Source: Pseudomonadota bacterium (lineage in GTDB: Bacteria > Myxococcota > JACRCW01 > JAFGSX01). From it: 64,000 nucleotides of DNA. The DNA lies in the NCBI GenBank assembly GCA_043821645.1, contig JBDRCO010000076.1:130965-194964 (forward strand), read 5' to 3'. Below the pieces are notes generated by a model that did no database searches, was not told the DNA's origin, and saw nothing but the letters and a program-made list of their open reading frames with translations. Position numbers and translations under genes: made by a program. Shown here one piece after another: positions 57,781 through 63,464 of this stretch (position 1 is the stretch's first letter; each line of letters starts with the position of its first letter).

Positions 57781-57932
57781 AGCACTCGCCTCTGACGCGC
57801 CGCGTCCGGAAGGGGCGGCCCCGCAGGCCATCCTCCTGTTGACCCATGACGGATGTGCAGTGGTCCGCCTATGATCCATGCCGCGGTGCATCGGATCACG
57901 TGCCGGCTGTACCCGGCGCACAGGAGTTCAAG

Positions 57933-58895
57933 ATGGCCAAGCTGTGCATCCTCGGGGGTTCGGTGGTGCTGTCCCTGGCACTGCTGGCTTGCCCGCTCGG
58001 GCTCACCAGCTCGGGCGACGACCTCGATGCTGGCGACGGCAGCGGATCCGATCGCGGATCGACGCGCCACGACAGCGGCGGCGGCAACCTCGACGCCACC
58101 GTGGCCCCCGATGTGGTGGCCGAGGAGGGCGGCTATGTGGTGAGCAGCGGCAATGGCCAGCCCGGCTCCGAGCAGACGGGCTCCCGGCCTCAGGGTGACT
58201 CGAACTCCCCCGTGTACATCGATCCCTTCAGCGGCAACACGACCTTCATCCCGGGCGGCACGAACCTCTTCAGCGGCGGCATCCAGGGAGGTCTGGCGCA
58301 AGCTCTGGTGGTGTACTTCGATCAGCTCAGCGGTTACTACCAGGTGCCGTCGGGCGGGACGGCGTTCAACTTTCACGTCACGCTGGGCCAGAACGTTCGC
58401 GCGGCCAACCTGACCCTCGTCGTCATCCCGGTCCTTGCGGTCACCGAGAGCCAGCCCATGGGTGGCTATGGCCGGCCCCTGCGCGTGCCGTGCACGGTGC
58501 AGCAAGTTGGCACCGGCGAGCTGCAGGTCAGCCTGTCCTGGTCCACCGCCACCGACGTCGACCTGCACCTGGTCGAGCCCGGCGGCCAGGACATCTACTG
58601 GGACGACATGACCTCGGCCAGCGGCGGCGAACTCGACCTCGACTCCAATCCGGGTTGCCGTATGGACAACGTGAACAACGAGAACATCACCTACGCCAAC
58701 GGCACGCCGGCCAGCGGCCACTACATCGTGCGCGTGGACTACTGGAGCGCCTGCGCCGAGTCGGGCACCACGGACTTCGTCGTCACGGTCAACATCCGGG
58801 GCACGCCCAGCGTCTACCAGGGCAGTTTTGTGGTTGGGGATGCGGACCAGGGCGACGCCAACTCCGGTATCACCATTGCCGAGTTTGATTTCTAG
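57933..58895 (+). CDS. Lipoprotein with YfaP/DUF2135-like domain
   Basis: AGGAG RBS, lipobox LLAC, LQVSLSW..DVDLHLVEP, LDLDSN and ENITY..G.Y.VRVDYW. Confidence 0.8.
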   Translation: MAKLCILGGSVVLSLALLACPLGLTSSGDDLDAGDGSGSDRGSTRHDSGGGNLDATVAPDVVAEEGGYVVSSGNGQPGSEQTGSRPQGDSNSPVYIDPFSGNTTFIPGGTNLFSGGIQGGLAQALVVYFDQLSGYYQVPSGGTAFNFHVTLGQNVRAANLTLVVIPVLAVTESQPMGGYGRPLRVPCTVQQVGTGELQVSLSWSTATDVDLHLVEPGGQDIYWDDMTSASGGELDLDSNPGCRMDNVNNENITYANGTPASGHYIVRVDYWSACAESGTTDFVVTVNIRGTPSVYQGSFVVGDADQGDANSGITIAEFDF

Positions 58896-59165
58896 CGCCC
58901 TTCTGCCTGCCAGTCTCTCCTGCTATCCCGGGTAACTGGACCTGCGCGCCGCTGCCTTGGACCGCTGAAGGAGCTGCTGGGCAAGCGCTTATCCTTAATG
59001 CAAGATGACGCAGCGGGTCTAAAAATATCTTAAAAATACCTGCTAGATGCGTGCAGCGTACCAAAATACTCTGGTGTGTGCTATTATCCTACATAGGCCT
59101 CGACCTCCGCCGCTTGCGCGCTCGGGGCCAGTCCCTACCTAGTAGGGAGCGTGAGGTGGGTCACA

Positions 59166-60365
59166 ATGGAGCCTTGCACCCGCTGCCCAGATCCGAAGCC
59201 CGAGCGTTCGACGCCCTGTGATGCGTGCGATGACGTGCACGTCAACCTGCCGCCACGGAGCCCCGACCCCATGCTGGGCCGCGTGGTGGCCGGCAAGTTT
59301 CGCATCGAGGCCATGGTCGGGCAGGGGGGAATGGGCAAGGTCTACCGGGCGACCCAGCTCTCCCTCGACAAGACCGTCGCACTCAAGCTGCTGCATGCAA
59401 GCTGCAGCGAGGACGAGCTCAAGGTCCAGCGCTTTCACCGCGAGGCGCGTGCCTCGAGTCGTTTGACCCACCCCAACGCCATCTCCATCATCGACTTCGG
59501 GCAGGATACCGATGGCACCCTGTACATGGCGATGGAGTTCGTGCGCGGGCAAACCGGCATGTCGCTGCTGCGCAGTCAGTTTCCCTTCGACGAGAAGCGC
59601 GTGGCGCGCATCGTCCAGCAGGCCTGCCACGCCTTGGCCCAGGCCCACGACCGTGGCCTCGTGCACCGCGACCTCAAGCTCGACAACATCATGATCGACG
59701 ACAGGCCGGGCCGAGAAGACTTCGTCAAGGTCCTCGACTTTGGCATTGCCAAGCTGCTGCACCCCGAGGGGCAGGACGCGCGTACTTTGACCAGTCAGGG
59801 CTTCGTCTGCGGCACGCCCGAGTACATGGCGCCAGAGCAGGTGGTCAAGGAGACCATCGATCATCGCACCGACATCTATGCCCTGGGCATCGTGATGTAT
59901 CAGCTGGTCACAGGTCAGCTTCCTTTCAAGGGGTACAACATCGTCGAGGTGGCTGCGCAGCAGGTGGCCACGCCGCCGCGGCCGCCCCAGGACGTCGCGC
60001 CGCACCTGCCCATCTCCGACGAGATGCAGAGCATCATCCTGATCTGTCTGCAGAAGAATCCCGCGCAGCGCTTCCAGTCGACCCGCGCCCTGGCCCATGC
60101 CCTCGATGCCATCGTGGCGGGTCGGGTGCACTTCCTGGGGAGCCTCGCTGCGCAGACAAGGGTGTCGACCCGGACCGTTACCGCCATCGACGACGCGGCC
60201 TCCGGTCCGGCCCTGCCGGTGCAGGACAAAGAGGATGTCGAGCTTCGCTCCGAGGAGCTCCTGTCGCCGGCGGCTGCCCGGCTGTCACCGCGCGGTTTGC
60301 TGGCGGTGAGCGTGCTCGGGAGCCTGGCGACGCTGGCGGCGTCCGGCTGGTTGTTATTCGCCTGA
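59166..60365 (+). CDS. Ser/Thr protein kinase with C-terminal membrane anchor
   Basis: VGQGGMGKVY, VALK, HRDLKLDN, DFG and GTPEYMAPE. N-terminal CxxC pairs. Confidence 0.93.
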   Translation: MEPCTRCPDPKPERSTPCDACDDVHVNLPPRSPDPMLGRVVAGKFRIEAMVGQGGMGKVYRATQLSLDKTVALKLLHASCSEDELKVQRFHREARASSRLTHPNAISIIDFGQDTDGTLYMAMEFVRGQTGMSLLRSQFPFDEKRVARIVQQACHALAQAHDRGLVHRDLKLDNIMIDDRPGREDFVKVLDFGIAKLLHPEGQDARTLTSQGFVCGTPEYMAPEQVVKETIDHRTDIYALGIVMYQLVTGQLPFKGYNIVEVAAQQVATPPRPPQDVAPHLPISDEMQSIILICLQKNPAQRFQSTRALAHALDAIVAGRVHFLGSLAAQTRVSTRTVTAIDDAASGPALPVQDKEDVELRSEELLSPAAARLSPRGLLAVSVLGSLATLAASGWLLFA

Positions 60366-60421
60366 CCACGCCTCGTCACGCAGGAGCTGCGCTGATGGCC
60401 CAGGCTGGCTATGCTCTGGGG

Positions 60422-61000
60422 ATGCGGCACCTTCACATCCTGACTTCCTTCGTTCTTGGCTCCTTGGTGGCTGCCTGTGGTCCCGCACAGGGCCCGGTGT
60501 TCAGCGCCAGCGACGGTGCCATGCCCGAGTTCTCGCTGAGCGACGTCAATCCGGCCTCGGTGCGCTACCAGCAGGCCGTGTCACCTCGCGATTATCTCGC
60601 GAAGGTTTCAGGCTGGTACTTCGGGCACGCCGGTTGAAGCTATTGCCGTGACCAGTTCGGTCACCTCGATCGCCTGCAGCAGGAACTCGACAGCACCCCC
60701 ACCGACACGCCCATCGCGCTGCTCGGGGTCAACGGGATCGATGAGGACGGCGCCAATGCCGAGATGGTCGAGGGTCGGCACCTGCCCTGGCTTCAGGATA
60801 TCCGTGACAAGCAGGTCTGGGGTTCGTGGAATGTCACCTACCGCGATGTGGTGGTCCTTGACGTCGACAACAGGCGCGTCTTCACCTACAACCTGACCTC
60901 GAACAACCTGGCAGACGACGCTGTGTATCAGGAGCTCAAGGATCTGCTGATCCGTCTGGCCAACGGCGAGGACCTGGCCGCGACGGCCGATGGTTCGTGA
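60422..61000 (+). CDS. Thioredoxin-fold (redoxin/Prx-like) lipoprotein, probable selenoprotein (UGA at 60635-60637 read as Sec; UxxC)
   Basis: Track ORFs 60395-60637 and 60764-61000 share one frame with a single TGA between them. Readthrough gives WYFGHAG-U-SYCRDQFGHL..LQQEL..IALLGVN..LPWLQD, a Trx-fold pattern. Lipobox VAAC. Confidence 0.85.
60648..60664 (+). promoter_or_regulatory. Candidate bacterial SECIS hairpin
   Basis: GTGACC-AGTTC-GGTCAC, a perfect 6-bp stem with a G-containing loop, starting 10 nt after the TGA. Confidence 0.65.
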
Positions 61001-61460
61001 GCGCGTGAAAGGCGAGGTTCCCGTGGTCGAGAAGATGAAGATCTCGCGCGAGCAGATCATCGCGTTCATGGAACACGAGGTGCGCTTCAATCGCATGCTC
61101 GGCATTCACCTGGTCAGCCTCGAGAATGGCCTGGCGATCATGGAACTGCCCTTTCAGGAGGACCTGGTGGGTGATCCCTTCCGCCCGGCCTTGCACGGCG
61201 GCGTGATCAGCACCCTCGTCGATACCTGCGGTGGTGCCGCGGTGTGGAGTGCCTGCGAGCCCGAGGACAGGGTGTCCACGGTGGACCTGCGAGTGGATTT
61301 CCTGCGGCCGGGTCCGCTCGAGACACTGCGGTGCGAGGCCACTGTGCAGCGCATGGGCAACAGGGTGGGCGTGACGGACATGAAGGTGATGGCGGTGAGC
61401 AGTCCGGCAGACCTCATCGCGACCGGACGCGGTGTGTACAATGTGCGGCGTGCGGAGTGA
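60990..61460 (+). CDS. PaaI-family hotdog thioesterase
   Basis: FNRMLGI, LHGGVISTLVDTCGG and STVDLRVDFLRP. Start may be 61023 or 61035. Confidence 0.9.
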   Translation: MVRERVKGEVPVVEKMKISREQIIAFMEHEVRFNRMLGIHLVSLENGLAIMELPFQEDLVGDPFRPALHGGVISTLVDTCGGAAVWSACEPEDRVSTVDLRVDFLRPGPLETLRCEATVQRMGNRVGVTDMKVMAVSSPADLIATGRGVYNVRRAE

Positions 61461-61877: not shown

Positions 61878-63464
61878 ATGCCCGTCATCCAGAAGCCAGC
61901 GCTCCGGGAGCTCGCTACCAGCCTCATCGCGCGCCACGACGCGGACCCGTCGACCAAGGTCGACACCAAGGTACTGGACCAGATCGTGTCCATCGTCGGC
62001 GACCGCTTCTTCTCCAGCTCGGCGTCGATCGCGGCCAAGCTCAAGGACGGCAACCTGATGCCCGAGGAGAAGCTGGCCCTGGCTCGCAAAGGCCTGGACG
62101 CGGGCGAGAAGGCCGACGTCAAGACCCTGCTCGAGGACGCCAAGTTCGCGACCCTGCTGGATCCAGTGTCCACCAACTTCCTCAAGGCCCTGATCGGGGC
62201 CGAGCCGCTGCGCGCCATCGACACCGTTGGCGGCACCAGCCGCGTCAACGCCGTGACCTTCGTGCCGCCGGACAGCGAGGTGGCCGCCGTGCAGAAGATG
62301 CGGCAGCTGGTGACCGGCGGTCAGCTCAAGAGCTACTACGACGCCGCCACCGGCGCCGTGGACAACCCGGCGCTCAAGGAGGAGGCCCTCAAGCTGTTCG
62401 CGGACCTGCCCAAGATCACCGTCGACACCATCGACGCCGACAAGATGGTGGCCCTGAAGCTGTGGAGCACCAAGCCGCGTGGCATCGAGGAGATGCAGAA
62501 CTCGGCGCGCTACCTGCCGGGCCGCCAGGTCGTGGTCGAGACCAACATCAACGCCGACGCCTTCGACGAGCGCGGGCTGCTCAGCTACAAGGCCGATGGG
62601 CCCAAGGGGCGCACCTACCGCGCGACCCTGGCCGGCGAGGACGGCGACAACTTCCTGGTCAAGATCGACGGCAAGGACGATCCGGTCAGCGTGCCCAAGA
62701 CCGAGATCTACAAGCTCAACCAGCCCCACAAGTTCGACGGCGACGTGGTGCGCCTGTCGGGCACCATCGACTACAACGACCCCTTCATGAAGGCCAAGAT
62801 CGCCGAGGCCGCCATCAAGATGGACAGCCTGGTGGGCAAGCTCGACTTCACCAAGATGGCCACCGACGGTAGCGGCGGCATGCTCACCGTCTTCAATCGC
62901 GGGGCCAGCGCCCAGACCATGGTCGAGCTGCAGCGCAAGTGCGTGCGCGTGACCCACGACGTCATCAACATGGTCTACCCCAACGGCAGCGCCGAGAAGC
63001 GACCGGGCTGCGCGCGCGGTGGCAATGCTGGACGGCTGGCCGTCAACGGCGCGGGTGTGTGCTACGACCAGGCCACGGTCATGCTGGGCGTGCTCAACCC
63101 CTTCCGCGAGATGCTGGGCGTCGACGTCAAGTTCATCTCCGGCGGCGTGTTCCGCAACGTGCGCGACTCCAACGACAAATCCTTCATGGGGCAGGCACAC
63201 GGCTGGCTCGAGCTGACCTACCGGCCGTCCATGGAGACCCGCATCTGCGACCGCACCTGGCAGCAGCCTGACCACACCATGGACAAGGCCTACTCGCGCT
63301 GGGGCGATCGCTATCCCTCGGGCTTCTACTGGGGTGTGAGCTCGGCGCCGGTCAAGGACAGCGACACCAACTTCTCGGGTAACGTGTCCGTGGCCACCTT
63401 CGACCGCCAGTTCGGCACCCGTGGCGTCGACGGTCGCGACAACCACATGTCCAATCACCAGTAG
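61878..63464 (+). CDS. Protein with C-terminal transglutaminase-like (Cys-His-Asp) domain, no signal peptide
   Basis: GAGVCYDQA, AHGWLE and ICDRTW. AAGAGG RBS and very strong GC3 codon bias. Confidence 0.72.
   Translation: MPVIQKPALRELATSLIARHDADPSTKVDTKVLDQIVSIVGDRFFSSSASIAAKLKDGNLMPEEKLALARKGLDAGEKADVKTLLEDAKFATLLDPVSTNFLKALIGAEPLRAIDTVGGTSRVNAVTFVPPDSEVAAVQKMRQLVTGGQLKSYYDAATGAVDNPALKEEALKLFADLPKITVDTIDADKMVALKLWSTKPRGIEEMQNSARYLPGRQVVVETNINADAFDERGLLSYKADGPKGRTYRATLAGEDGDNFLVKIDGKDDPVSVPKTEIYKLNQPHKFDGDVVRLSGTIDYNDPFMKAKIAEAAIKMDSLVGKLDFTKMATDGSGGMLTVFNRGASAQTMVELQRKCVRVTHDVINMVYPNGSAEKRPGCARGGNAGRLAVNGAGVCYDQATVMLGVLNPFREMLGVDVKFISGGVFRNVRDSNDKSFMGQAHGWLELTYRPSMETRICDRTWQQPDHTMDKAYSRWGDRYPSGFYWGVSSAPVKDSDTNFSGNVSVATFDRQFGTRGVDGRDNHMSNHQ

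Follow-up and report, generated by a model that had tools for sequence, protein, structure and literature searches.

In-frame TGA in a thioredoxin-fold gene

We examined a locus in which one in-frame TGA lies between two open reading frames (ORFs) of the same frame, and asked whether this codon ends a small gene or encodes selenocysteine (Sec) within a longer one. The locus lies in a 64,000-nucleotide stretch of contig JBDRCO010000076.1, called the window here. Taking the sequence together with its ORF list, the frame runs on the + strand from ATG 60422 to a TGA at 60998-61000 with a single interruption, the TGA at 60635-60637 (codon 72 when counting starts at ATG 60422). Readthrough from 60422 joins the two ORFs into a 192-aa protein with the N-terminus MRHLHILTSFVLGSLVAAC and the active-site stretch ...WYFGHAG-U72-S-Y-C75-R.... 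An alternative start at ATG 60395, with AGGAG ahead of it, adds nine residues. A sequence-only reading of this locus had proposed an exported selenoprotein of 192 aa with a single TGA at codon 72; its coordinates and counts are all correct, and the translation bears out the product. The features on which the argument rests are as follows.

60422-61000, + strand: predicted selenoprotein gene, 192 codons plus TGA stop; NCBIfam NF053656 match of 216 bits, E 1.8e-64
60422-60478, + strand: predicted lipoprotein signal peptide MRHLHILTSFVLGSLVAA-C, with lipobox motif V-A-A-C in the translation and Cys19 at 60476-60478
60635-60637, + strand: UGA codon 72, predicted Sec, first position of U-S-Y-C; TGA aligned in 30/30 loci plus L049 and L051, Cys in 68 database domains
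60644-60646, + strand: Cys75, putative resolving Cys of U-x-x-C; invariant column in the 33-sequence alignment
60648-60664, + strand: putative SECIS hairpin, 6-bp stem GUGACC/GGUCAC with 5-nt loop AGUUC, within codons 76-82
60842-60844, + strand: Arg141, opposite the conserved Pro of TlpA-like proteins in hhalign
60998-61000, + strand: true stop codon TGA, from the ORF list and translation; TGA is also the stop in 20/30 family genes

DNA from other studies confirms the codon as TGA, rather than TGC or TGG. Contigs X2 (60552-60805) and X5 (60436-60681), assembled from runs of two other studies, both span the TGA with 0 differences. This check rests on X2 and X5, as X1 is possibly the sample from which the sequence came and codon 72 lies outside the part covered by X4. 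Among the runs listed, no RNA run contains this stretch.

The window gene belongs to a curated selenoprotein family

Using profile searches, we found that the readthrough protein matches NCBIfam model NF053656.1 (redoxin_TUGYCR, "TUGYCR motif thioredoxin fold (seleno)protein") at 216.1 bits (E 1.8e-64), where the curated cut-off is 100 bits. The alignment pairs residues 43-187 with profile positions 1-145 of 146, and a six-frame search of the genome recovers the match at 209 bits. Pfam returns no family for the window protein even at E up to 10. The suggestion that the family is possibly unnamed was wrong, since it already has a name, and the status of a (seleno)protein family, in NCBIfam; the selenoprotein call itself is right but not new, and the window gene is an ordinary further member of NF053656. 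A full-text search found no papers mentioning "TUGYCR", so the family appears to be curated rather than characterised. The window protein shares with NF053656 the whole domain, the Sec position and the Y, C and R of the motif, and differs in having G-U-S-Y-C-R instead of T-U-G-Y-C-R. Over 30 loci, U is preceded by T, S, N or G and followed by G, S or T, so the window motif falls within the range of the family.

Many bioinformatically predicted thioredoxin-fold selenoproteins of the U-x-x-C type with unknown function appear in Table 1 of a 2022 review (PMC9312934), among them entries called 'Prx-like thiol:disulfide oxidoreductase', 'Thiol:disulfide interchange protein' and 'Redoxin family protein'. 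As far as that table describes them, they share with the window protein a Sec at the first CxxC position and a thioredoxin-like fold, and differ in being defined by Pfam PF00578, PF13098 and PF13905, none of which the window protein reaches. The 'Redoxin family protein', accession MBA3499694.1 and listed there as an entry with no domain, might be family NF053656.

We surveyed 401 genomes sampled from the phylum and found matches above the cut-off in 34 of them, 36 matches in total; 35 of these have a single TGA, and the remaining one has no TGA. In each of the 30 loci that were read (L006 and L019-L047), the TGA falls on the U in U-[GST]-Y-C-[RQ] and the protein is conserved on both sides of it. 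Two more Sec loci, L049 and L051, agree on its position. Many members have P-L-L-Q-D instead of P-W-L-Q-D. One further candidate, L018, was a chance 'WYFGHAGC' match that runs antisense to a large hydantoinase-like ORF and was dropped. The family is patchy, as among the 40 nearest relatives a true member is present solely in the window's own genome. TGA is also the true stop of 20 of the 30 family genes, which indicates that it is not a general sense codon here; in these organisms, TGA is a stop codon unless the hairpin follows.

A profile search of 1.84 billion representative proteins returned 2373 relatives at E<=0.001, 807 of them at E<=1e-10. We aligned 178 domains from 168 database proteins and took a census of the Sec column. 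It is covered by 82 domains, with Cys in 68, Trp in 2 and a non-redox residue in 12. The column is missing from the remaining 96 domains, and 57 of them start at profile position 54, at a Met just past the UGA, which is the signature of split gene calls. Homologues with either TGA or Cys at the position aligned with codon 72, conserved on both sides, are thus at hand. Trp at this position, which the sequence-only reading had named as evidence against a selenoprotein, does occur, but in only two database proteins, P0005 (GHSS-W-SYCR) and P0082 (SHAG-W-IYCR), compared with 68 forms that have Cys and 32 whose TGA was verified in DNA; the simplest explanation is that a gene caller set to another genetic code probably read TGA as Trp in both.

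Several database proteins have unusual layouts. P0007 (339 aa) contains the C-terminal half of the domain, a linker, and then an N-terminal half that ends just before the U position. This layout looks like that of a tandem protein with two Sec, truncated at each UGA, and suggests that tandem two-domain forms with two Sec exist. P0024 (612 aa) has 5 matched stretches, of which at least 3 have neither the redox Cys pair nor the Arg described below. Members P0015 and P0016 carry a dockerin domain (PF00404).

A covarying hairpin follows the TGA

Bacterial Sec insertion is exemplified by E. coli fdhF, whose minimal SECIS is a 17-nt stem-loop about 11 nt past the UGA, within the coding sequence, that has a G in the apical loop and depends on SelB. 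In the window, as the sequence-only reading had described, a perfect 6-bp hairpin starts 10 nt past the TGA, with GTGACC (60648-60653) pairing with GGTCAC (60659-60664) around the loop AGTTC. It resembles the fdhF element in being a short stem-loop in the coding sequence, about 10-11 nt past the UGA and with an apical-loop G, and differs from it in sequence and in having a 6-bp stem without an evident bulged U. The hairpin matches no model in Rfam, where the only hit on 60500-60800 is a chance snoRNA (E 7.6). Folding of the 71-nt stretch by itself shows no unusual stability (z -0.9), so the significance of the hairpin must come from comparison.

In an alignment of the 30 loci, the stem columns (26-31 with 37-42) are paired in 99.4% of 180 cells, and five of the six stem pairs show double-sided changes (GC/AU, GU/GC/AU/UA, AU/GC, GC/CG/AU and CG/UA). 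Not one of 500 shuffles matches the observed number of paired cells, of double-change pairs or the covariation score, and sliding the 3' arm by 1-3 columns lowers pairing to 31-71%. The covariation of the hairpin, which had been proposed as a check, is therefore positive. Loop positions 1 and 2 keep A and G. All six pairs form in 31 of 32 Sec forms and five in the remaining one, L049 and L051 each having 6/6. The Cys forms L048 and L050 have 4/6 and 5/6 pairs, which is the expected direction with only two controls. Residues 77 and 81, encoded by the two arms within 60650-60664, change together (D/H, A/H, S/F, S/S and G/L). Because several stem compensations are non-synonymous in this way, the RNA structure shapes the protein.

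The genome encodes the selenocysteine machinery

We searched the genome (a 7.07-Mb assembly of 140 contigs, 94.7% complete) for the genes of Sec insertion. It contains selA (531 bits), selD (388 bits, with one in-frame TGA of its own), a SelB wing domain within a 656-aa open frame and, according to aragorn, one tRNA-Sec with anticodon TCA. The sel genes that the sequence-only reading had wished to see, selA, selB and selD together with tRNA-Sec, are thus all present.

The same genome holds three other Redoxin-family matches, each with an in-frame TGA. L058 (G000:C132:42862-43257) is BCP-like, with the TGA at the active site (...FTPG-U-TRE). L063 (G000:C112:7010-7435) is of the AhpC type (...FTFV-U-PTE), with one TGA, also at the active site. 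L062 (G000:C51:176611-176991) has the U-x-x-C form ...GGW-U-PHCR, one TGA and a lipobox-like N-terminus. With these three loci and the Sec-containing SelD (G000:C87), the organism appears to be rich in selenoproteins.

These comparisons strongly support the decoding of UGA codon 72 as Sec by SelB, which the 17-nt hairpin would recruit, and by the same evidence the window gene is almost certainly a genuine selenoprotein of the NF053656 family. That the TGA is instead a nonsense mutation, an assembly error or the boundary of two small genes, as a standard ORF listing (60395-60637 plus a later in-frame piece) and the insignificant single-sequence fold might suggest, is extremely improbable given a TGA at the same codon in 32 loci of many genera, protein conservation that runs on past it, a covarying hairpin, sel genes in the genome, the existence of Cys forms and identical contigs from two other studies; a pseudogene or error is excluded for practical purposes.

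The protein is predicted to be exported and lipid-anchored

The window protein carries the motif L-V-A-A-C at residues 15-19, read as a lipobox. By regular expression, 25 of the 30 loci have a Cys-terminated lipobox-like motif ahead of the domain; the five others comprise one that is N-masked, one with L-G-L-A-C, which is nearly a lipobox, and three that are extended at the N-terminus. This motif points to an exported, lipid-anchored family protein and, on that basis, supports the earlier proposal of a membrane-tethered extracytoplasmic lipoprotein. The best explanation of the locus, which we consider very probable, is a single gene for a lipid-anchored, extracytoplasmic thioredoxin-fold redox protein with a Sec at codon 72 read by SelB.

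The modelled fold is closest to ResA, TlpA and CcmG

We modelled the protein with AlphaFold2 from a 33-sequence alignment (mean pLDDT 92.1, pTM 0.84). In it, residues 62-68 form a strand and residues 73-91 a helix, after which comes the rest of a thioredoxin-like fold; this places Sec72 at the N-terminal end of helix 1. The TGA therefore stands where the first Cys of a thioredoxin CxxC belongs, as the sequence-only reading had recognised. Foldseek gives ResA (1su9_B) as the best match (E 7.8e-10, TM 0.82 on target), followed by DsbE, TlpA and CcmG, and then by AhpE and Bcp at E ~1e-7; overall, the top matches range from E 1e-9 to 1e-7 with TM 0.6-0.8 on target. When PDB sequences are searched with the profile, U-x-x-C-R lines up with W-C-x-x-C-R in a thioredoxin-family protein (E 0.018). 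Among the 33 family members, weak Pfam matches are to AhpC-TSA in 23 (best E 4.4e-6), to Redoxin in 13 and to SCO1-SenC in 13 (best E 0.0021).

Using hhalign, we compared the family with two sets of proteins from the same genome. Three TlpA-like proteins (set A4) align with a probability of 84% (E 7.7e-6), and U72-x-x-C75 falls on their WCxxC, the redox motif that this class carries at the N-terminal end of helix 1. Four peroxiredoxins (set A5) align with a probability of 17%; here Arg141 is opposite their conserved Arg, Cys75 opposite their peroxidatic Cys and U72 opposite a Thr. The window protein thus resembles ResA, TlpA and CcmG (DsbE) in its best structural matches, in having the redox motif at the start of helix 1 followed by Arg (UxxCR for WCxxCR), and in its inferred membrane-tethered extracytoplasmic location. 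It differs from them in having Sec for the first Cys and no Trp ahead of the motif, in a sequence identity of about 16%, and in having no seen link to cytochrome c maturation genes.

An arginine stands at the proline position

In solved structures of the TlpA-like class, the proline loop before strand 3 has cis geometry. In the alignment to set A4, Arg141 of the window protein is opposite the conserved Pro of this loop, which lies in F-P-E-T-Y-L-V-D in the TlpA-like proteins, and residues 136-146 of the window protein contain no Pro. The sequence-only reading was right that a residue other than Pro occupies the usual cis-Pro position. The window protein would work like the TlpA/ResA/CcmG class but is no plain member of it, because it has Arg for Pro, and since this Pro defines the class, its chemistry may differ from plain thiol-disulfide exchange.

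We then counted the Arg across the family. It is kept in 65 of 69 domains that have the redox pair and in none of 12 domains without the pair; among truncated forms, which are presumed to be Sec forms, 83 of 85 have it. By this pattern Arg141 looks like part of the active site, and an Arg that stands in for Pro and appears to be gained and lost together with the redox pair is the modestly new point of this analysis.

The gene neighbourhood gives no clue to the substrate

The gene is flanked upstream by a Ser/Thr protein kinase (59151-60365) and downstream by a 4HBT-type thioesterase (60990-61460), which is read in another frame and whose first 11 nt, from the ATG on, coincide with the end of the selenoprotein gene. 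Such an overlap, here at 60990-61000, was not seen in the other loci. Two further ORFs on the + strand, 57846-58895 (349 aa, with a lipobox-like N-terminus) and 61878-63464 (528 aa), give no Pfam match at an E of 0.001 or less. Clustering of the genes within 1.5 kb, which spurious ORFs in the sequence blur, yields no neighbour present at more than 7 of the 30 loci; sharing is limited to sub-groups of 6-7 related loci, one of whose neighbours has a weak TPR match and another no Pfam match. With no gene at this distance common to the 30 loci, the context gives no clue to the substrate. Elsewhere in the genome, there are three matches to DsbD-type membrane domains, and the proteins that contain them would be candidate reductants.

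Possible chemistries of the Sec centre

In the mechanism that we propose, SelB would insert Sec at codon 72 under the direction of the hairpin, and the protein would be exported and then lipidated at Cys19. The selenolate of Sec72, at the N-terminal end of helix 1, would act as the nucleophile of the U-x-x-C centre and attack an oxidised substrate in the periplasm or envelope; Cys75 would resolve the adduct to leave a selenenylsulfide, which would be re-reduced from the cytoplasm, plausibly via a membrane protein of the CcdA/DsbD type. Arg141, in place of the proline loop of ResA and TlpA, would be part of the active site. We give this specific ResA/TlpA-like reductase mechanism about an even chance of being right.

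A second possibility, which we think rather unlikely, is an envelope peroxidase or a reductase of sulfenates or other oxidants, in which Arg141 would play the part of the conserved peroxiredoxin Arg and make the Sec/Cys centre reactive towards a small oxidant. The alignment of Arg141 and Cys75 with the conserved Arg and peroxidatic Cys of the four peroxiredoxins in the same genome speaks for it, as do the weak AhpC-TSA matches, the presence of AhpE and Bcp among the Foldseek matches and the loss of the Arg exactly where the redox pair is lost (0/12 vs 65/69). Yet the same peroxiredoxin alignment has a far lower hhalign probability than that to the TlpA-like set and puts Sec opposite a Thr rather than the peroxidatic Cys, the window sequence W-Y-F-G-H-A-G-U-S-Y-C lacks the P-x-x-x-T-x-x-C motif, and the top structural matches are ResA, DsbE, TlpA and CcmG.

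More doubtful is a hybrid active site that has no match in characterised enzymes, in which a Sec at the thioredoxin nucleophile position would be combined with a peroxiredoxin-type Arg in place of the proline loop, the two gained and lost together. Were it true, the family would be an envelope-anchored selenoenzyme with its own chemistry rather than a copy of ResA or TlpA, and might reduce, for example, a small anionic oxidant or proteins of the envelope that are sulfenylated or selenylated.

SCO proteins have a C-x-x-x-C motif. It is quite improbable that the window protein is an SCO-like copper protein of the envelope, with the Sec/Cys pair binding copper or reducing the copper-site cysteines of a partner. 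This reading draws on the weak SCO1-SenC matches and on complexes of TlpA with ScoI and with cytochrome oxidase subunit II among the Foldseek matches; against it, the motif is U-x-x-C, no copper-related gene is recognised beside the window gene (kinase, 4HBT thioesterase and the ORFs without Pfam family), and the 30 loci share no conserved neighbour within 1.5 kb.

Implications

The locus matters for annotation, as gene callers for which TGA is only a stop split the gene into two pieces. Among the 178 domains, at least 57 look like products of such cuts, and the true size of the family and its use of Sec are thereby under-reported. The Arg-for-Pro substitution coupled to the redox pair offers a concrete residue for testing. 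For the organism, a groundwater bacterium that is seemingly rich in selenoproteins, the window gene adds one more selenoprotein, predicted to be exported and lipid-anchored.
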